The notes beneath the pieces were generated by a model, which saw only the letters and a list, made by a program, of their open reading frames with translations, was not told where the DNA came from and did no database searches. A DNA stretch of 63,436 nucleotides, filler included, from Rhabdomonas costata (lineage: Eukaryota), in assembly GCA_019059605.1 (NCBI GenBank). It is 34 parts of 34 records of this genome, joined end to end, with 100 filler letters (N's around TTAATTAATTAA, not from the genome) between each part and the next. Parts side by side here need not be neighbours in the genome. Positions count along the whole stretch, not along the records: positions 7,479 to 9,247 come from JAHMHO010009320.1; 33 more parts are not named here. One strand, 5' to 3'. Both the position numbers and the translations under genes were made by a program. Below, piece after piece: positions 1-61,569 of the stretch; within the stretch, counting starts at the first letter, position 1, and every line of letters begins with the position of its first letter.

Positions 1-538
1 TTGTGGGTGTCACTGGAAAGGGTTATTGGTCAGAGAAACATGACGTGCAAGTGCTAGGGCGTGAACTTCCCACAACTTTCAAATGTACAAGTGTCATTTT
101 TGGAAGACAAGCTGCTAAACTCGAAACTCTGAAATTTATGTGCAGAAAGGACAGACTGACAATCAGAGAAGTATTTAAAGCACAGGCGCACCGAGAAAAA
201 CACCCGCAATGCGCCATCAAAAAACGCCGGACCAGTGTTTGTTTGCGGGAAGCTCAGATGAGCAACGGCACCAGCCGCGTCAGCACCATGCACCAGCCTA
301 ATGTGTGCGTGCCGGCAGACCAAGCAGTGCTTAAAGTGGCGGTTTCCCGACGATAAGGAAGCGGTACGTGTGTGCGGGTGTGTTGGGTATATAGCGCTGG
401 CTGTTGAATGATTGACTGTTGGTGACCGCAGTGGACTGGCGGGGGCCCCCGACGTTGGCCACGGTTGCTCGTCCATTTGTGGGTGAGTGGGTGGGTGCGC
501 GTGTGTGTGAAGACTTTGCAGAGAAAGCAGAGCAAAAC

Positions 539-3739: not shown

Positions 3740-4335
3740 GAGAAAGCCGCCGCCAGGATGGTCGAGTGGTTCGGCTGGATGTTAAAGTCTCCGGCCACCA
3801 CGACGGGGACCTCGCCGAGTGAGGAGGCCACGGCCAGGACGTCCCGCAGCAGGTCGTCATTGCGCCTGTTGACCTCGGGCGTGTAGTCGCTGGCGTAGCC
3901 GTACACGCTCATGAGGTGGAGCAGGCGGCGCCCAGAACCGTGGGGGACAGTGGCATGGCACCACCGACCCGTATCCCAGAGCTGCCGCTCCAAGTCGCCG
4001 TGCGGAGGAACAAGGCGTAGAGGAAGCCCTTGTCGTGCAAGAACAGCTACTCCTCCAGCAGTAACGCACCAGACAGAGGTGTTGCGGGAGCCCTCCAGCA
4101 GCGGCTGCGCCTTCCCCCAGGCAGCTTGCCATCCGCGTTCCCGAAGGCGGGCCGCCATGGAGCGCTGCCCCACCTCACCAAGCCTGGTCTCCTGGAGCAG
4201 CAGCACGGACCCCGGGAATGCCACCACCGCCTCAAACTGCGAGTTCAGCGAGGTGACATTGGCCGACACCACGTCCAGGTGACCCGCCGCCGGGCCGGGG
4301 GACCCGCCCCGCCGATGACGACTAGGAGTCGTCAT
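3740..4335 (-). CDS. LINE ORF2 N-terminal apurinic-like endonuclease (partial)
   Basis: APE motifs in order: VVSANV, LLLQET, GGVAVL, SVYG, VVAGDFN. The ATG at 4335 overlaps the end of ORF1. Confidence 0.9.
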
Positions 4336-5083
4336 CTTCCATGGAGTCGCGGACGGAGCTGCCTCCTTGAGGAGGCGCCGGGTTCGGGGAGCGAGATCTC
4401 GACTCGGACATTTCGGTGTCCTGGCCTGAGTCATCGGCCGATTTCTGGGCCTGCTTCTTCCAGCCGGGCTTCGAAGGCGTGCAGGTTGCGGAGGGAGCGT
4501 GGGGACGCTTAGCTTTGGCGGCGGAGGAGCCCAGGGTGGCAACTTGCGCTTCCAACGCCGCAATCCTTTGGAGGAGTTCGGCGCGTTCGGCGGCCCATCG
4601 GGGAGGGAGGAGAGTGATGGGGGCAGAAATCGGGACGGGGAGGGCTGCAGGCGCGGCTGGCGCCAGGGAGGTCGGAGCCTCGAACTGGGGGTTTTGAGGA
4701 ACTGAAGAGGAGCGCTGGGCTTTGCGTTCCTTCGCGAAGGCCTTCTTTTCGCGCTGGAGCTGCGCGCGCTCTTCCTGCAGCTTCTGCCGCTCGTTGGTCA
4801 GGGCCTCCTCGACCAGCTGTCGTAGCAGCACTTCCATGACACCGAGGCCCGGGACCGCAGGGGGTGGGGTCGGGCCGGTGGTCGGAGCCAGCCGGGGCGT
4901 ACTCCGCATGTTGGGAGTGGTGGTACCTCCGGTGGGGAGAGGTGTCTCGAGCTCGTCCTCGGAGGCGGGGACTAATGCTGGTGGGGCCCGCGGCGTCTGG
5001 GACGCACCACGGAGGCCCTTGCGGGAGGCGGCGAGATACGACTGGGCCATAGAAGGGGCAGTCCTCAGCTGGGTGCCCCCCAT
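4322..5083 (-). CDS. LINE ORF1 protein (253 aa, coiled coils, Pro/Ser-rich)
   Basis: Intact ORF with heptad-like segments (LLRQLVEEALTNERQKLQEERAQLQREKKAF; ERAELLQRIAALEAQV) directly upstream of ORF2. Confidence 0.75.
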   Translation of the reverse strand: MGGTQLRTAPSMAQSYLAASRKGLRGASQTPRAPPALVPASEDELETPLPTGGTTTPNMRSTPRLAPTTGPTPPPAVPGLGVMEVLLRQLVEEALTNERQKLQEERAQLQREKKAFAKERKAQRSSSVPQNPQFEAPTSLAPAAPAALPVPISAPITLLPPRWAAERAELLQRIAALEAQVATLGSSAAKAKRPHAPSATCTPSKPGWKKQAQKSADDSGQDTEMSESRSRSPNPAPPQGGSSVRDSMEDDDS

Positions 5084-5641
5084 GGAGGTAGGAAGGGCAG
5101 AGATCGCTATCTCGACTCGTGGTTGCTACGGTTCAGACTCACTGGTCAATTTTTTCGAAGGAAGGTGGAAGTTGTATTGCCTGTCCCTGCCCAAGGAGTG
5201 GCTTACACCAATACACAACACCTCACGAGAACTCGGCGTTTATGCATTACAACACAGCATTCATGAATGGGAGAACAGCGGACTGAGGCAAAATTAGGTG
5301 GCTGCATAGAAGGAAAAGCGTGCATTGAAATCAAACAAGAAGGAAGCAAGACGTCCCGTGAAGTGAACAAAAGAGCAAAGCACAACGCGCGGATCCCGAG
5401 TTCCACACAGGACATACAGCTGGCTCAGAAAGGGGAGGGGGCCCCCACACACGGGGTTCTCCCTCTGTTGCAGGCCGCAAAGCCTGTGGCGTCATACCCC
5501 ACCAAAAANNNNNNNNNNNNNNNNNNNNNNNNNNNNNNNNNNNNNNNNNNNNTTAATTAATTAANNNNNNNNNNNNNNNNNNNNNNNNNNNNNNNNNNNN
5601 NNNNNNNNGTGTTGGGTGTGTGTGGGGGTTGGGTTTCTCAG

Positions 5642-7353: not shown

Positions 7354-7478
7354 GTGTGCCCAATACCTATTCCCACACNNNNNNNNNNNNNNNNNNNNNN
7401 NNNNNNNNNNNNNNNNNNNNNNTTAATTAATTAANNNNNNNNNNNNNNNNNNNNNNNNNNNNNNNNNNNNNNNNNNNN

Positions 7479-8904
7479 AGCCCTGCCTCATCCCCACCGG
7501 CGACAACGTCGCGGCACAGAGAGATCATCGCAGATGAGCTCCATTGCGACGCCCCACCTCCTCCGCGCTCACCGCCCTCCTTCAGCAGGCGCTGCAGGTA
7601 GCCAGAGGCCTCAGAGCGTTGCCCTGCAAGCTGCCGCACGGCAGCCGCGAGGGGGACAAAAAGGGGGTGGGTGCCCACACGGCTGAACCAGTACGAACGG
7701 TAAAGAGGGCAGTGGGGCGAGGGATGCCCCAGGGCAATTTTTATTAAACCAAAGGGAGGCGAAATGTTTAGGCTGGAGCGGAGGGAACAAGGCAGTGAAA
7801 AGATCACTTGGCCTATCGGAAAACTGAGACGATAAGTGGATTTGGTATTAATGTGTACGCCGGTGTTTAGTCAACGTCCGCGCAATGGACAAGTGGGAAA
7901 CTACTGAGTGTTCACGCATGCTCATACTTACCGCAATGACAAAACCTGGGAAAATCGTTCCAACACTACCGCTGTACCCAGCAATTCAGTGCAAATCACT
8001 CCAGGGCGGTCGTCCCACTGCGGCCCCTCAGAGGGGTGTGCTGTTGTTCCAGCCCGTGCCGAACTCCCCCTCGTGCTCACCCTCGGCGCGGTGCACCAGC
8101 CCGTGCACGTAGGTGGCCTCCGCGGCGGCAGGGCTGTCGAGCACCGGCGGTGTGGCCCCGAACGCCGTAGGGGAGGGCCAGCTGAGTGGAGTGACCAGGT
8201 CATGGGCCTCGTCCAGGCCCCCGACAATGAGGTACAGCAGGGCCGCCTGTGCCCACAGTTGTTCAGCAGTAGACAGGTCTCACAGCGAAAAGCCTCAGCA
8301 ACAGTGAGTTTCTGAACTGTGTGCAGACAGGGGGCCAGCAGATCCTCAGATAGGAGGCTAAAATCTTCACCCTATTCACTGGGTGCTTTCCGGATGTGCA
8401 CCCTGGCCCCCCGGTCCATAAGCGAACCAGAGCAGGAGCCATAGCGGAAGATAAGGGATGTCGTGAGTTGGATTAGGTTGGGTCTTGAGCTGAGTTACTG
8501 GCTTCCCACCCTGGCCGAACGTATACGCCATCGGATTCTGAAGGGTTCTATCTTCGGCTCTTTTTGAGGTCATCTAGGGCCTGGGTGTTTAGAAGGTCCA
8601 TGTTTAGAGCCCAGGAAAACTTTATGCCGGCACCCACCCCGGTACATTTTCGAGAGCTTTGTGCATGTGGAAAAAAGTGAAACTGAAGAAAGTAACAAGC
8701 ACTCATACGCACCACAACAGTGGCCATGTCGGAGCTCCCCAGGGCAGAGGACTTCAGCCCTTGCACCGGCTTCGGGAGGCGGTTGGGGTCCAGTCTACCC
8801 AGGGGCTGGTAGCTCATGCTACGCCCCTGAATCTGCACTGGGCCACTTCTTAGAAGCTCCAGAACATAGGTCACAGCGGGCAGGGCGCGGGCTTCCGTGG
8901 CCAT
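7479..8904 (-). CDS. Conserved hypothetical protein of the 'LDEAH...HRxEG...NxxYWF...HP' type, 3 exons, partial
   Basis: Exon 8904-8713 (MATEARALP...ATVV|gtgcgt), exon 8246-~8040 (AALLYLIVGGLDEAHDLVTPLSW...YVHGLVHRAEGEHEGEFGTGWNNS) and exon ~7696-7479 (SYWFSRVGTHPLF...). The motif order matches an uncharacterised family I recall from bacteria and algae. Confidence 0.75.
7697..8039 (-). other. Putative non-conventional (non GT/GC-AG) intron with base-paired ends
   Basis: Needed to join GWNNS to SYWF, because read-through meets TGA three codons later. There is no AG at the acceptor in any register. Positions 8010-8029 are an imperfect inverted complement of 7705-7720. Confidence 0.7.
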
Positions 8905-9791
8905 CCCGGTGACAAAATTCAGAACAATCAAATGACCAAAAGATCAAGAAATGAGAGTGCTATCTAGAATTTCCAGGAAGTGTGAGGAGGGCTGAAAGTT
9001 GAAGAAGTCACGAGTGCAACCATGAAAAACCATAAACTTATAATATGTCACTCACTCTTTTGTAATTCTCAAACAATCAACAGCCCACACGCTGTTGATC
9101 CTTCCGGGAATGCAGAGAGCATCTTTGGAGATGGAGACACAAACAGGGGGATATACACATGCTGGTCCGGCCCAACACCGCCACCTTCAGCAACCGACCC
9201 TTGCTTTTCGATGAAGCTCGCAAGCCAAAAGTAGGTGAAAAAACACANNNNNNNNNNNNNNNNNNNNNNNNNNNNNNNNNNNNNNNNNNNNTTAATTAAT
9301 TAANNNNNNNNNNNNNNNNNNNNNNNNNNNNNNNNNNNNNNNNNNNNGTGTTGGGTGTGGTTGGTTGGTGGTTTTTATAACCGAAATAGGGCTTTTTGGA
9401 GGCCTCTTACTTCAATGATGACTCGCGGCCCAACATGGGCGATGTCCAATGCATGCATGCTCCATCTCCGTAGGCGGATTCCAGTGCGCGTGTTTTTCTT
9501 TTCGGTTTTGGATTTGTCCACGGCGGCTTTTCTTCTGGTCGCGAAATTGTGTTATTGAGGTCGGTGAGGTATCGACCAATTAGGTTTTACCGAAGGCACA
9601 TTGTTCCTGCTATGCATATGCCAGTATCGTGTGCACCCGCTTGCACAGCTAGCACAAAGTGCACAACCCATCCCGAGTGGATTTCTCAATGGGGTTGGCA
9701 GATCACTAGTGTTATATATGGGTGGGAGTATGCTCTCCCGCAGGCCCCATCGCCGACTAAAGGTCCCAACGCCACAGAGGGGAAGCAACAG

Positions 9792-16718: not shown

Positions 16719-17951
16719 CACAACCNNNNNNNNNNNNNNNNNNNNNNNNNNNNNNNNNNNNNNNNNNNNTTAATTAATTAANNNNNNNNNNNNNNNNNNN
16801 NNNNNNNNNNNNNNNNNNNNNNNNNGTGGGTGGTTTCACTGATGGCGATGTCTTTTGAAGGTCCCATGGGACTTACTAAGAAAACGGAATTGTGTTAAGA
16901 TGAGAGGGAACACGTGGATGTGCGCTCTCAAGGCATGAGGAGCTCCATACCGTCAAGCACACACAGGCAAGGCGGGAGGCACTCACCGTAACTCCTCCAG
17001 CTTCTTTCGTCGCTTCAGAGTGGAAGTGGCCTTTGAGGTCAGCGCCCTCTGCTGAGAGAGCGCCTCAATCTTGCGAAAGTCCGCGGGGGTCAAGATCTGA
17101 CGCACCAAGGTGGAGGGTGAAGGGCGCAACGCATTTTTTGGGGGGGGGGCGTTCAACGCTTTTCCAACCTAAACGATCATGTACAAGACTAGGACTTAAG
17201 TATCATCTTCTCGTATTTTTTTGGGGTTCACGAGCACTATTTGGAGGCCCAACACTCTTTCTGATGCACTTGAGCAGATGAGAAAAAAAAGAGGTGCGGT
17301 AAACAATAGGAGATGGGAGAAATAAAGAAGAAGAAAAAGAAGACTTCCCACCCGAGCGGCGTCCACACGCGGGGGAGGCCCCGCCGGTTTTCGCCCACGG
17401 GAAGGAGGGTTGGCAGAGGCGGTGCGCTGACCCCCAGGGGGTGTCACAGCCGAGGCTGGGTCCTTGCCTCCATCACTCAGACCCGGGCTGTCGCCATAGC
17501 TCTCGCTGTCGCTGCTGCTGTCGCTGTCAACGGCGCCGTCAGCTTTGGTGGTGGTCTGCGAACCAAAGGCATAACATCATCTCATAAACTTGGCTGCCAA
17601 GAGAACTGCAGGTCCAATCCAACTGCAACGGAGGCCGCGGGCCAAAGCCGAAGAGCTGGAGGGGAACCAAGCGAGCCCGTCAAAAGAAAATCTGGACAGA
17701 CAGCATCTAAGATAAAAACTTAAAAAAACCATGACTGTGACCATTTTCGCTCATGTAATTCCTCCTTGACTACTTGGGCCCTGAACATGGTCTGTGGAAT
17801 TTGTTAGGATGACGAAAAAATGGTGAGCAGATGACAAACTACTGAAAGGCAGAAAAAAAAAGCAACAACGCCGCAACAGACAGCAACGAGAGCAGCGCAC
17901 CAGAGCAAAGCGAATAAAATGGGACGCACACCACAACGTCATCCAGGTTTA

Positions 17952-28552: not shown

Positions 28553-28660
28553 TCTCATTGGCACTGGAGTGCTGAGAATGTGTTGAGCGCTGTGCTGCGC
28601 CGCTGGGTGCCCTCCGGCGGCTCGTGTGAGTGGGTTTGTGGGGATGTCCGGTGGCCGCAG

Positions 28661-29800
28661 GCTACGATGCCATGGGTAGGGTCACCGCGGGCCACAGCAA
28701 CCGCGTGTACTCCGTGCTCTTTGCCGACCAGAACATGCTGCTCAGTGGGGGCTGGGACAGGTCTACCCAATCCTCCACCTCTTCATCGGTGGCCCTTTCT
28801 TCTTCCCTTCGCGATCTTCGCGCTTAGCGCATGAGCGATGTTCAGAAGGTTGTGTATCCAGGTGGTGTCTGCAGGTTCTGCAGGTTGTTCACCTGACGAG
28901 TCCGCGTTTTGTTGTTCCCCTTGTTTTGTTCTTGGGAGAGCATTGCGTGAATGGATGTGCGAATGCAGGGGTTTGAGCAGAGATCTGGAGCTCCACAGAA
29001 CTGCGGTGTAATGCACCATTGAGATTTCCCAAGAACCTTCGTCCAGCACTAGAGGGGTGAACTGCATTGGTACCCCTGAAAAGCGGTCAGCCAGTTTGAA
29101 TTGAGAGACAGGTTTCCTTTTTTTTTAGACGGCTTTCACACCACCCAAGAAAAAGCAGAACGACAGCAAAGCTTCGTCACAGGTACCAAACCTGCAGGGT
29201 GAAAACGCAGGAATGTCACATGTTGAAAGAAAGGTAGTTTGGTTTTCTGCTTTGCTCAACGTCCTCTAAAGTTCTAACACCGTGCTTCCAGCACCCCAGC
29301 ACGGCATCCTGCTCCGCCACAAGGGCGGGGGGAACCCCGTGATCGGAGACACGGCGAAGCAAGGCCACACCAAACCTTCGCACCTACCATCTGGGAGGGT
29401 GCCTTCGCTGCACAAACACACACACACACACAAAAATATATAGGGCTGCACGCACTGCAGCAGTGAAGCCCCGCGGTCCCCTGGACACTGTAAAGGCAGA
29501 AAAGACCTCCACCGAAGCAATGCCTATTACACGTAATGTGCAGGTTGAGGGTGTGGTGGCAACGTTTTGAGAAGCCCAGAACACTACAGGTTGTCATGAT
29601 CTCATACCACACCACATCTCAGAGCTTATGTCCTGCTTTATCAGGCAAACGGCTCTCGCCGCTCCACCTCCGACTGGTGTGCGTGTATTTTGAGGGAGTG
29701 GGGTGCGGGGGGTGCAGGACGGTGCAGGTGCACGACATCCGCTCAGGCCGTGCCGTGCGCACGCTGTTTGGGCCCCACGTCAGCGGGGACGCCCTGGACC
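28661..29800 (+). CDS. WD40-repeat protein, internal exons
   Basis: Exons 28661-28760 and 29718-29800 give GHSNRVYSVLFADQNMLLSGGWDR|TVQVHDIRSGRAVRTLFGPHVSGDALD. Confidence 0.9.
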
Positions 29801-57192: not shown

Positions 57193-58418
57193 GGTACCTG
57201 GTCCCGCTGTCTTGTCACGTAGGGTTGGTTTACCCCATGTGACCCCCGATCCACAGTGTAAGCAGGGCCTTAGGGAACCTCTCACACACCACGCTTGGGC
57301 GCACAGTCATCACTCTCTCGCCTCATTGTAACTATATTGTGCACCTCATCCCTTCGTTACACACCACCACCAGGACGGGCAGCAACTTACTCCATTCCGT
57401 CGACCATGGGGCCCGAGAGACGACTGAGACATCGAGTTGGGAAACATGTGCCCGTGACGGAAATAGCTGTATAGTCATAAAAAAAACAAAAGCAATGCAG
57501 AGCCACATCCGCACCGTATCCTCAACGAACTTCAGATTGGGCTCCTGATTATTTGGCTCCTTTTTGACATATCCCTGTGGACAGTGGGATCTCGCCCACT
57601 ATTGGATGCAGGGGTTTGTGACAAAACGGAACACTTTTTTTTTGACTTAAGACAGGGTTCAGGGAGAAAAAAGTGGTACTCCCGTATGTAATCACCGATG
57701 TGAGTAGTTACGTACACAAAGAAGGGTTCGCAAGAAACTTTTGAAATGCTTTGTTGACCCCAAGGGCCACATGTAAACCGAAAAACCAGGGTTGAAGCGC
57801 AGCAAAGGTAAAATGAGGCATTACCAACAAAANNNNNNNNNNNNNNNNNNNNNNNNNNNNNNNNNNNNNNNNNNNNTTAATTAATTAANNNNNNNNNNNN
57901 NNNNNNNNNNNNNNNNNNNNNNNNNNNNNNNNGGGGGGGGGTAGCTGCGCGGGAGGGCGGTGACGGTGAGGGTGCCCGAGGAAGTGATGCGAAAGGTAAA
58001 TTTCTTCGCTTCACCAAGAGTGTGCGTGTGTGCGTGTGTTAGGAGAAAACGGTTCAGTCTTAAATGCCCAGTCTGGAAGGTCGTGAGACTGAACGATAGA
58101 TGTGTGCGGAGAATGCCGATAGAACTGCAAAAAGGCAATGCCGGAAGCCGGAAGTAGGGGCCGCAGCCCCTAACGTGTGGTTAAGCCTTTCTGTGCCATT
58201 TCGTAGTAGTATGGAGGAAAAGTCACAGGGAGCGAGGCTTCTCCGGAAATTCGGAGGGTTGGTTGCCATATAGCAAGGTTTGCGGTCAATTAGCCTTGTT
58301 AAGCGATCCACTGCAAACCCAATTCTATGCAGAAATCACCTGCGAGAGCGTAAGGACCCGACAGATACACCCGGCGGAAAGAATCCATAACACCCACACC
58401 AACGCCACCGAGGCATAC

Positions 58419-59266
58419 AGTGGAGTGTGGTAGGCGCCCGGGGTGGGGTCCCGGGTCTGCCGCAGAACCAGCAGGCACAGCACGGCCAGCCCGTAGAACA
58501 GGAACACGCAGAAGCTGAAGTAGCTGATCAATACCTTCAGTGCCCCCGCGCAGGTCGCGATGCACACCCACCCGCACTGCACCACAAGGGCCCGCGTCGG
58601 GGCCTTGCTGCGGGGGTGCAGGTGGTGAAACCAGGACGGCCAGATCCCATCGGCGGCCTAAAATGCAAGTACAGAGTGAAGCGGATTACATTGGGGCAAT
58701 GCTCCCAGGTTTGCGGGCGAGACCTGTCTTTCGAGCAATGATAGTAGATGGGAGCTGCACACAGTCCACAATGGCCCGTCCAAAAAAAAGCGAAGACACC
58801 ATTCGGTCCACGGGCATGTACTAATTCACATTAATTAATTAAAGCTCTGTCCCTGGAGCTCTTCACGTGGACGTGGTATTTAGAGACCCCTTTGGATCTA
58901 AGTCTGCTCACGATCCTGTAGCGTTTACCCACCCAACCAAACCACCCATCTATAAGCACATACAGCGCGGTAGTAGATCTGTGAGCCCGTCAGGATGGAG
59001 CCGTTCAGCGCCCCCGTGCACGAGATCGAGATCGCCACCCCGACTAGAACCTGCCCCAGCTTGCCCAGCACGCGCTGTCCCAGAGCCACGGCCACCACCG
59101 GGGAGTGCGCCACCACGGCGGGGTCCAGGCTGCCCAAGTAGATTAGGGTCACGGTGAGGTAGATCGCGACGATCGCGCCCACCCCGTAGGCGATGCATCG
59201 TGGAAGGGTTCGCTGGGGCTTCTCCAGCAGCCCGGTGGCGTAGTTCAGGCCGTTCCAGCCGTCGTA
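58419..59266 (-). CDS. APC-superfamily amino acid permease (LAT/SLC7-like), internal exons
   Basis: Exons 59266-58964 and 58657-~58419 give YDGWNGLNY...EKPQRTLPRCI...SCTGALNGSILTGSQIYYRA|AADGIWP...APTRALVVQ...LLVLR...YHTPL. Confidence 0.9.
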
Positions 59267-59799
59267 CTGGATTTAAAAAAGGGGCTGGAAGCCATCCTAC
59301 TGCGCACCATGGGTTCCCTACTCATTCCCACCCTAGAGCTTTCTGCCTTTCTTCCCCCACGAATTGCCTTCTTTCCCTATTGCCCGTCTCCCAAACGCCA
59401 CGAGTTTCACATTCCCTAACATGGACGATAATATAATGTGATCCAGCCTGGAGAGTGACACATCGGTACCGCCAGACTATGGTGGCGCCGTGAGTTGACC
59501 TTAACGGGGCGACTCAGACGCGCCTCACCAGACTACACTCTCTTTTCTGTCACGCCCGAGATCAGTCCCTGTCATTTCCCTGATTCACCCCCCCCCACAC
59601 ACACACCGCGATGGCTCATTCGTTTTGCGGAAGTGGCTGTCTTCGCCAGCCACATGGGACACAAAGCCTGCGGTACCCCACCCCTGACGACCCGCTTTCN
59701 NNNNNNNNNNNNNNNNNNNNNNNNNNNNNNNNNNNNNNNNNNNTTAATTAATTAANNNNNNNNNNNNNNNNNNNNNNNNNNNNNNNNNNNNNNNNNNNN

Positions 59800-59896: not shown

Positions 59897-60387
59897 CCAA
59901 TTCATGCACACAAATCAGTGCGTGTGTGCGTGTGTGTGCCGCTGTAGCGCCTTGTGCAAGGCGTGAAGTCGTGCGGCGGTAGAGCACACACTGGACTATC
60001 ACATGAACGCATTCCCCTGGTCACCTCTGCGAAAGGAAAGGATGCTATTCCATCCATACAAACCACTCTCTGTATATATGGATATGTGGGTTTCACTCTT
60101 GGGTTGTGCCCAAGAGGCTCCACATTCGCTTCGACGCGAGCACCTGCTCTTTATTAGAAGTGGAAAAGGAGTTAGGTGTGCATGTGTCCGCCCCCTCTGC
60201 CACCATCTAGGTCCATTGTACTTTAACCAGAATAGTCTGAAAACGAATTTTGAAAACAGCAGCAAACCGCCCGATCATCTTTGCCGCCAGCGTATAGCTG
60301 ACAAGCAGAGAGTGATCCAAGGCGCCAAGCTGGACTGGATTCGCCTGCGTGTACGGCGTGTGCGGTGTGGGGGTGGGCATTTCTCAG

Positions 60388-61390
60388 CAGCGGCTGGACT
60401 TCCGGCATGCCGAGTGCAGCCTGCCTGGGCTGCTTTCCGTGGTGTCGTCGTTCACGCCGTTCTTCCAGTCCAACCCCAGCCCCAGGAACCTCTTCCAGTG
60501 CCAAATGGCGAAGCAGACCCTCGGCATGATGAGCCCCGCCCGCAGGTACCCTCTCTTTATCTCCCTCTCCCCATCCCTTGCCGTCGAATCTGACTTTTGC
60601 AGCTTGGTTTGAATTCCCATGGTGAAGCTCTGCGGAAACCTAAAGCAAACGGGAAAATGGTTCGGGTTCGGGTAAACTCTCTGCCTCAAACAGTTGGTGG
60701 GTTTGCGCGATCGATTGTCTGATCTGCTGTGTTATTTTCCCTTCTGTTTTTTTTTTCTGCTTTCTGGTTTCTGCTTTTGATTACCGTCAATTCAACAGTC
60801 AGAATTCATCCGAGGCCACCATTTGCCAACGCCTCCCCACCTACGCCACCACCACCCACCACCCAAATTTCCCATCGCATCCTCAGATGAATTCAAGTTT
60901 CTTGTGATCTAGTTCGTAATCTAACCCTCTGCCCAGTCCCAATTTCACAACCCAACCAAGTCCGATCTTGTCCCCTAGCGTTGCTAACCCCAATCCGTGC
61001 GTTCCTGAACTTAAATTGTGACCGAATGCCCTAACCATTCCCTGATATCTTTAATGTCAGCTTCAGAATCTTAGCCCACAAACCTCTTGCTCAGGAAAAT
61101 AGAACTTTGACATTATGATTTTTTTTGGGGGGGGGAAGACGCGAGTTTCCTGTTTTTGATTATTCGCGCCGCGTGAGGAGCATTCCCAGCGCAGCTTTCA
61201 TCGCTTGTCCACCTCCGCCCAACCACTTTTTGTACATAGCCTGCGGTATGACAACAAGTCCTACGAGCTGCGCTGCGGGCAGCGCCCCGTAGTGCAGACA
61301 GAGTCCTTCAGTGCGCTGGCAATGGACTCCCGCCCCACCGTCACCAACGCCGTGGTCGCCATCGCGGCCTACTCCGAGTACGACATGGAC
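60388..61390 (+). CDS. RPA2: RNA polymerase I second-largest subunit, internal exons
   Basis: Exons 60388-60545 and 61240-61390 give LLSVVSSFTPFFQSNPSPRNLFQCQMAKQTLG...|LRYDNKSYEL...QRPVV...TNAVVAIAAYSEYDMD. SPRNxxQCQMxKQ together with DNKxY is the Pol I pattern. Confidence 0.9.
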
Positions 61391-61551
61391 GTATACCCGC
61401 ACCCACCCACCACCCACACCATCACACTCTCCCGCACGGACATGCCCACATGGTTGCTCTCACAAAAAACACCGCAACCCAACTCAGCCAGGGGCCCGGA
61501 GGCTGCAGAGTGCGTGCTTCCCACGACTCCCGTGCAGCAAGACACCAACAC

Positions 61552-61569
61552 ACCAAACACACCCACCAC
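61552..61569 (-). other. WGA universal-primer remnant at contig end (example)
   Basis: ccaaacacacccaccac is nearly the reverse complement of TGTGTTGGGTGTGTTTGG. Similar remnants occur at 5609, 9348, 22310-22330, 24189-24201, 48591 and 52213-52226. Confidence 0.8.

Follow-up and report, generated by a model that had tools for sequence, protein, structure and literature searches.

A 343-nt candidate nonconventional intron with atypical symmetric geometry in a conserved gene of the euglenid Rhabdomonas costata

Introduction

Euglenid genes carry nonconventional introns, reported to have variable, non-canonical borders and a secondary structure that joins their ends, and their mechanism of removal is described as unknown (PMC3935182, PMC4770533). 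Their removal from the transcript follows that of the conventional introns and yields full-length circles (PMC11282704, PMC12501133), and they make up 71.8% of introns in the data reported for Euglena agilis (PMC12501133). Here we analyse a window (the whole stretch of DNA under study, 63,436 bases from Rhabdomonas costata) in which a fragment of a conserved gene, on the minus strand of one contig, is interrupted by 343 nt that are probably a genuine intron of this euglenid type, with an atypical, symmetric arrangement of its paired ends.

The closest described systems are the introns of Euglena. Knock-in mutagenesis in Euglena gracilis defined the code 5'-N3-CDG.../...CH'G-N5-6/R; a one-base change of the 3-nt spacer on the 5' side abolished splicing, whilst on the 3' side one additional base was tolerated, the loss of one or the gain of two lowered splicing and the gain of three nearly abolished it, and 61.2% of annotated nonconventional introns are stated to match the pattern (PMC12501133). 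In a set of 55 Euglena introns, a pyrimidine/purine (Y/R) pattern at the junctions was reported in 49-55 introns per position and a purine at the start of the downstream exon in 55/55 (PMC4770533). This first experimentally defined cis-code (2025) covers two Euglena species only. R. costata, a primary osmotroph, stands outside the lineage of Euglena, and a rule-breaking intron from so distant and non-photosynthetic a euglenid would, if genuine, separate universal parts of the code (candidates are the end pairing and the Y/R steps) from lineage-specific ones (a candidate is the 3/5-nt ruler).

Six well-studied genes of R. costata contain 29 complete introns, every one given as GT-AG, and seven putative nonconventional introns are reported in the species, four of them as 'very likely' (PMC8219788); on the geometry of such introns in rhabdomonads, our literature search found only this study and a paper on rDNA. 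Further afield in the Euglenozoa, ca. 97% of the introns of hemistasiid diplonemids, which have a complete spliceosome, are non-canonical and end-paired (PMC12621601).

Results and discussion

A 343-nt interruption in a conserved gene

The window is made of 34 contigs of ~1767-1772 bases (~1.77 kb), joined through linkers in which 12 bases of TTAATTAA-type sequence (TTAATTAATTAA) are flanked by N44 on either side (e.g., 7379-7478 and 9248-9347); the contigs are artificially joined, and any feature spanning a linker is therefore artificial. The contig at 7479-9247 holds a three-exon gene fragment on its minus strand (7479-8904; Table 1). A search with exon 2 among 1.84 billion representative proteins found 234 matches with E ≤ 1e-3, of which 96 had E ≤ 1e-10, the best being a 112-residue, transcriptome-derived protein (P0001; EukProt EP00906 Rhabdomonas costata RCo024653) which is letter-for-letter identical to the 64 residues of exon 1 followed by the initial 48 of exon 2. 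This identity establishes the host as R. costata (Euglenozoa, Euglenida), and it documents the splicing of intron 1, which the initial annotation had described as a normal GT-AG intron. The gene belongs to an uncharacterised family of ~200-260 residues, widespread in eukaryotes, with the motifs LDEAHxxVTPxSW and HRxEG..GEFGTGWNN[AS]xYW. No Pfam family was found for the three exon translations or for five full-length homologues, the sole hit being a sub-threshold LGFP match, and a scan of metagenomes with exon 2 returned 595 stretches fitting the pattern, of which none was confirmed. On the exon 3 side the contig ends before the family's final ~40 residues.

Table 1. Coordinates of the gene fragment, of the candidate intron with its paired arms, and of the other intron-bearing fragments of the window. 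Positions are those of the whole window; HMM, hidden Markov model; GC3, GC content at third codon positions.
Feature	Coordinates	Strand	Details and basis
Exon 1	8713..8904	-	ATG 8904-8902, 64 codons; = P0001 residues 1-64; HMM 3-74; GC3 0.74
Intron 1, conventional GT...AG (GTGCGT...CACAG), 466 nt	8247..8712	-	P0001 reads across the exon 1/exon 2 junction
Exon 2 (AALLYL...GEFGTGWNNS + two bases of next codon, register c)	8038..8246	-	HMM 75-142, 131.9 bits; GC3 0.88
Candidate nonconventional intron, 343 nt, register c	7695..8037	-	HMM 142/143 contiguous; no canonical dinucleotide pair; GC 0.51
Exon 3 (x-YWFSRVGTHPLF...), to contig end	7479..7694	-	HMM 143-202, 28.5 bits, i-E (independent E-value) 5.3e-09; GC3 0.71
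In-frame TGA	8028..8030	-	Ends the exon 2 frame on retention or on a Euglena-rule cut at the inner CAG/CTG
5' arm, predicted intron-end helix (GAGGGG..GCAGTGGG.CGA..GCCCTGG), with CAG 8020-8018	7998..8029	-	Duplex map; pair probabilities
3' arm, predicted intron-end helix (CCTGGGGC.....TCG.CCCCACTGCCCTCT), with CTG 7712-7710	7703..7735	-	Duplex map; pair probabilities
5' exon arm, predicted exon-exon helix (exon 2 end)	8038..8072	-	Pairs with 7661-7694
3' exon arm, predicted exon-exon helix (exon 3 start)	7661..7694	-	Pairs with 8038-8072
Amino-acid permease fragment (AA_permease_2, profile 201-301 and 303-404)	58328-59272	-	306-nt GT-AG intron 58963..58658, GTATGT...TTTAG
RNA polymerase Rpb2 domain 6 fragment	60316-61567	+	694-nt phase-2 GT-AG intron 60546..61239, GTACCC...CATAG

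Read on the minus strand, exon 2 runs ...HRAEGEHEGEFGTGWNNS, continues with TPL and then meets the TGA, whilst the expected continuation, SYWFSRVGTHPLF, picks up in another frame; taking out 343 nt restores the frame, as the initial annotation had seen. We placed the junction by protein homology, using a local HMM built from 65 homologues (length 190-300 residues, motif present, P0001 excluded) and searched against all 66 stop-to-stop open reading frames (ORFs) of the contig. The three exons occupy successive stretches of the profile, which is contiguous across the gap, and exactly 343 nt must therefore be removed. The NNSxYWF spacing without insertion that the annotation had expected is a property of the family: among the 150 homologues listed, 111 had the HRxE anchor and enough sequence, and 105 of the 111 show the spacing N-[AS]-x-[YF]-W; the other six are divergent or truncated, and none carries extra residues. 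Models with the 343-nt excision score 211 bits and every alternative 175 or less: two cuts made by the Euglena code further out than the homology-placed junction reach 175 (6-nt 3' spacer, N6) and 157 bits (5-nt spacer, N5, frameshifted), a code cut further in reaches 165 bits, truncated at the TGA, and models using canonical dinucleotide pairs reach 152, 145 and 128 bits. GC3 is 0.71-0.88 in the exons and 0.50 in the in-frame intronic stretch just upstream of exon 3, and the GC content of the whole segment is the same as that of the confirmed intron 1.

Four registers of the excision, from 8039..7697 to 8036..7694 (a-d), yield equally good proteins, b and c giving the same mRNA. The dinucleotides that border the 343 nt in the possible registers (AG..AC, GC..CC, CA..CG, AC..GT, CA..TT, AC..TC and CC..CG) take in those listed in the initial annotation and include neither GT/GC-AG nor AT-AC, and the closest AG upstream of the acceptor lies at 7774-7773, 76 nt from 7697, in keeping with the annotated absence of an AG within ~70 nt. 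Register c, 8037..7695, is the most likely one on present sequence evidence. It alone has a pyrimidine followed by a purine at both junctions (C8038/A8037 and C7695/G7694), which is weak evidence in that three of the four best registers lack the pattern; its downstream exon starts with a purine, G7694, its last exon bases pair with each other, and its spliced junction, CAGCAC/GTACTG, is palindromic at 10 of 12 positions, each of these points being weak alone.

Could the spliceosome remove the segment after all, either at non-canonical sites that the helix would bring together, as is suspected in hemistasiid diplonemids, or at a canonical pair such as GT 8064-8063...AG 7684-7683 that would give a shorter isoform? 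We enumerated all in-frame, stop-free pairs with the last exon base at 8100-8025 and the first at 7760-7671, and canonical dinucleotides occur in three of the 2151 (GT-AG 8065/7682, GC-AG 8077/7682 and GC-AG 8095/7682). All three would delete the conserved core GEFGTGWNNSxYWFS, the most conserved motif of the family, at a cost of 59-83 bits relative to the 343-nt model. The last 32 nt of the segment do contain 26 pyrimidines and are C-rich, like the tracts described for conventional Euglena introns (PMC11170887), but this richness is accounted for by complementarity to the G-rich 5' arm, of which the 3' end is the complement. Conventional U2-type hallmarks are lacking: the borders are not GT/GC...AG, and the candidate 5' end, ACCCCT, is unlike the three donors placed in the window, GTGCGT, GTATGT and GTACCC (acceptors CAG, TAG and TAG). 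Together with the stretch free of AG upstream of the acceptor, this makes removal by the spliceosome distinctly improbable, even though the precedent of the diplonemids, with their complete spliceosome, speaks for it.

Two other readings of the segment were tried and rejected. The internal string cag/GTTTTGTCATTGCG/gtaagt that the initial annotation pointed out is present, but using it as a micro-exon needs the same non-canonical outer sites, adds a frameshift of +14 nt and conflicts with the contiguity of HMM positions 142/143; a CT-AC reading (GT-AG on the opposite strand) breaks the frame.

Pairing of the intron ends and of the flanking exons

As annotated, the two ends of the candidate intron base-pair around a CAG:CTG core, the arms GAGGGGCCGCAGTGGGACGA and TCGCCCCACTGCCCTC bringing CAG 8020-8018 opposite CTG 7712-7710. 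The duplex between the first and last 40 nt has a predicted energy of -37.0 kcal/mol, and as low a value occurred in a fraction of 0.003 of 3000 343-nt pseudo-introns drawn at random from the window (mean -15.9 kcal/mol) and in 0.0027 of 3000 shuffles of the intron ends (mean -24.2 kcal/mol). In the comparison with shuffled sequences that the initial annotation proposed, the intron as a whole has an ordinary fold (z = -0.22, with 39 of 100 shuffles as stable); the structural signal is located in the ends. An Rfam search gave no match at gathering score in the whole window and none at E ≤ 1 in 7600-8150.

The flanking exons pair as well, over 36 nt per side at -33.4 kcal/mol; p is 0.016 under resampling of synonymous codons, 0.011 under shuffling and 0.037 relative to natural pairs matched for GC. 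Exon and intron helices together form a composite duplex (8075-7998 / 7735-7658) of -71.5 kcal/mol, interrupted at the junctions, which none of 800 natural pairs of the same spacing, none of 59 GC-matched pairs and one of 500 shuffles reached; the corresponding duplex at the ends of the conventional intron 1 is an ordinary -43.1 kcal/mol. In the predicted structure the exon helix extends to the pair C8038-G7694 and is followed by a symmetric 8x8 loop (ACCCCTCT / TACCGTTC), after which the intron helix runs inward from G8029-T7703 with 6+8+3+7 pairs, CAG facing CTG within it. When 8075-7658 was folded, the core of the intron helix (8021-8002) had pair probabilities of 0.81-0.99, its outer part (8029-8024) ~0.43 and the outer exon helix 0.99. 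The firm outcome of the folding is that two robust helices enclose both junctions; the exact 8x8 loop is a model.

These properties fit the broad definition of euglenid nonconventional introns: the host is a euglenid by the P0001 identity, the homology-placed borders are neither GT/GC-AG nor AT-AC, and the ends are joined by structure, as seen in an end duplex within the top 0.3%, in the composite duplex and in the pair probabilities of the core. The second, structure-guided splicing route put forward in the initial annotation fits, because homology requires the excision of 343 nt without GT-AG borders and the ends pair significantly; it would be the known euglenid route, not a new one.

The same pairing bears on the possibility of an assembly or amplification artefact, in which the 343 nt or its junctions would be a chimera of whole-genome amplification and short-read assembly. 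Several contigs of the window have near-perfect inverted repeats at or near their ends, and the draft genome is described as highly fragmented and made from amplified DNA (PMC8219788). The arms at this locus are by contrast imperfect, with mismatches, bulges and G-U pairs, and are not the exact copies expected of an amplification hairpin. The exons are colinear, on one strand and in family order, the insert sits mid-contig, and it has the GC content of the confirmed intron 1, all of which make an artefact very improbable.

Comparison with the Euglena code

The candidate shares with Euglena code introns a euglenid host, borders without GT-AG, inverted repeats near the ends containing CAG:CTG with an extended helix behind, Y/R at both junctions, a purine at the start of the downstream exon (in register c) and a conventional intron in the same gene. 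It differs in where the paired core sits. In Euglena CAG and CTG lie at +4..6/-8..-6 (PMC3935182, PMC4770533) and the reported spacers are 3 and 5-6 nt (PMC12501133), whereas here, with the junction taken from protein homology, they lie at +18..20/-18..-16, the first stem pair is +9/-9 and eight bases are unpaired at each intron end, which bears out the annotated offset of the stem by ~8-10 nt. Positions +4..+6 read CCC, CCC, CCT and CTC in registers a-d and the -8..-6 triplets are not C-H-G, so the Euglena code, which sets C-D-G at +4..+6 against C-H'-G at -8..-6 or -9..-7, is absent from its usual positions. Unlike Euglena code introns, the candidate also has a substantial exon-exon helix abutting the junctions, and its terminal 10 nt are unpaired. 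We regard this departure of the stem from the Euglena position as a plausible variant, judged from the sequence.

The introns of hemistasiid diplonemids offer a further comparison: they too are Euglenozoan, lack conserved terminal dinucleotides and have GC-rich paired ends and a tendency of the flanking exons to pair, but they have median lengths of 37-91 nt, are paired within the terminal 9 nt and make up ~97% of introns (PMC12621601), against 343 nt, unpaired terminal 8 nt and a rare occurrence in the genome for the candidate. The seven published R. costata candidates share with ours the species, non-GT/GC-AG borders and, in the example drawn, a stem-loop, a likeness that is by description only (PMC8219788).

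Two CAG/CTG arrangements in the locus do obey the code, and both give poor products. The outer one, with CAG and CTG located in the exons, would cut at 8046..7684 (N5), shifting the frame, or at 8046..7683 (N6), deleting seven residues of NSxYWFS. The inner one uses CAG 8020-8018 and CTG 7712-7710 with spacers N3 and N5 and agrees perfectly with the Euglena code as far as the exon purine; a cut at this pair (8023..7705, 319 nt) is in frame yet keeps eight extra codons which include the TGA. A third arrangement, 5' CTG 8031-8029 with 3' CAG 7685-7683, was rejected on homology as a code pair: it forms a 5-bp stem, reaches an exon-start G only after a 6-nt spacer, and is in frame only with N6, when YWFSRV is deleted.

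The inner match raises the question of whether this is a dead or dying gene copy, carrying an insertion like a MITE (a miniature transposable element with inverted repeats) that is either retained or cut at the inner CAG/CTG, the product ending at the TGA. Were the insertion unspliced, the fragmentary assembly would here contain an ordinary broken copy of the gene. Such a copy would account for the finding of exon 3 in no recorded protein (among those of 38-2000 residues), and the first and last seven bases of the segment, ACCCCTC and ACCGTTC, are imperfect direct repeats (5/7) resembling a target-site duplication. Against it, both flanking exons are intact, have high GC3 and are fully conserved with the family, and exons 1-2 are expressed, as P0001 documents. 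The reading frame, moreover, needs the loss of both copies of the 'duplication', unlike a simple transposon footprint, and the element has no second copy in the remaining 33 contigs (a weak test, at ~60 kb); blastn with 7650-8090 as the query returned from the window only chance matches of 11-12 nt. On balance a dead copy appears unlikely. MITE-like introns, or introners, similarly have terminal inverted repeats with a possible degenerate direct repeat outside them, but are reported to be removed by the spliceosome at GT-AG (PMC11282704), whereas here both direct-repeat copies are inside the excised segment and the window holds no further copy.

The direct repeats themselves, at 8030-8037 and 7695-7701, lie just outside the inverted arms and may be due to chance.

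Weighing the reading and a possible mechanism

Several observations weigh against a genuine nonconventional intron at this site and temper our confidence in it. P0001 ends at 8103, 63 nt short of the candidate junction, and is therefore uninformative on the 343-nt excision; exon 3, used as a protein query against a set of 5.8 billion proteins (lengths 38-123 and 124-2000 residues), had no match; and the amplified, fragmented draft genome noted above counts on the same side, as does the stop-containing or damaged product of either code-compliant cut. The structural reservations concern the junctions. Pairing at +5,+6/-8,-7, reported in 55 of 55 Euglena introns (PMC4770533), is missing, the terminal 10+10 nt fold at 0.0 kcal/mol in all four registers, and such an unpaired state of the termini is listed in E. 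gracilis both for nonconventional introns, at 131 of 4498 and 436 of 11,653, and for GT-AG introns, at 4075 of 11,527 (PMC11170887). The pairs next to the junctions are only ~0.3-0.55 probable, competing with two small local hairpins, and a fold with both hairpins is 1.0 kcal/mol better than the continuous helix; the significance of the exon-exon pairing is modest (p = 0.01-0.04), and the downstream exon carries A at its third base, where C is preferred.

We nevertheless hold that the 343 nt probably are a genuine euglenid-type nonconventional intron of atypical symmetric geometry. If it is spliced, recognition must tolerate the displaced core or use another ruler, perhaps the exon helix. Tentatively, and as a possibility that we would put below even chances, cut sites in R. 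costata may be set by the symmetric 8-nt internal loop between the exon-exon and intron-end helices, with Y/R at the loop edges, and not by a count of 3/5-6 nt from CAG:CTG. On the main reading of a genuine intron, intron 1 would be removed by the spliceosome first, the pre-mRNA would then fold into the two-helix structure, and the machinery for euglenid nonconventional introns would cut at C8038/A8037 and C7695/G7694. The exons would be joined to an mRNA reading ...AGC ACG TAC... and a protein with NNS-T-YWF, and the intron would be released, probably as a circle as in Euglena. Should the symmetric-loop rule be true, the machinery would read structure and not a fixed ruler, or the ruler would have shifted between euglenid lineages. 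The 343-nt candidate offers a concrete substrate for the existing Euglena knock-in assay.

Remainder of the window

Elsewhere in the window, introns were placed by Pfam coordinates in a scan of 10 of 52 candidate ORFs, and the placeable introns, intron 1 included, were GT-AG in three of three cases; the two others lie in the permease and Rpb2 fragments (Table 1). A 60-nt RNAduplex scan of the 34 contigs gave 3439 pairs at ≤ -38 kcal/mol, mostly inverted repeats at contig ends and GC-rich repeats, and helix clustering for further end-paired introns in the window was likewise dominated by low-complexity repeats.

At contig ends, or adjoining them, are the near-perfect inverted repeats 35520-35602/35977-36059 (83 nt, 99%), 46401-46469/46554-46622 (69 nt, 96%) and 24306-24340/24459-24493 (35 nt, 100%), which may be hairpin chimeras of whole-genome amplification or real elements with terminal inverted repeats. 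High-GC3 ORFs on two other contigs gave weak Pfam matches, one (27.6 bits, just below the cut-off; 16986-17168, minus strand) to the SDA1 conserved domain and one (19.1 bits; 28630-28824, plus strand) to a WD40 repeat. The contig at 3740-5508 has many long-range duplexes of -56 to -64 kcal/mol between 60-nt windows and a 267-codon high-GC3 ORF (4325-5125, minus strand), and looks GC-rich and internally repetitive.

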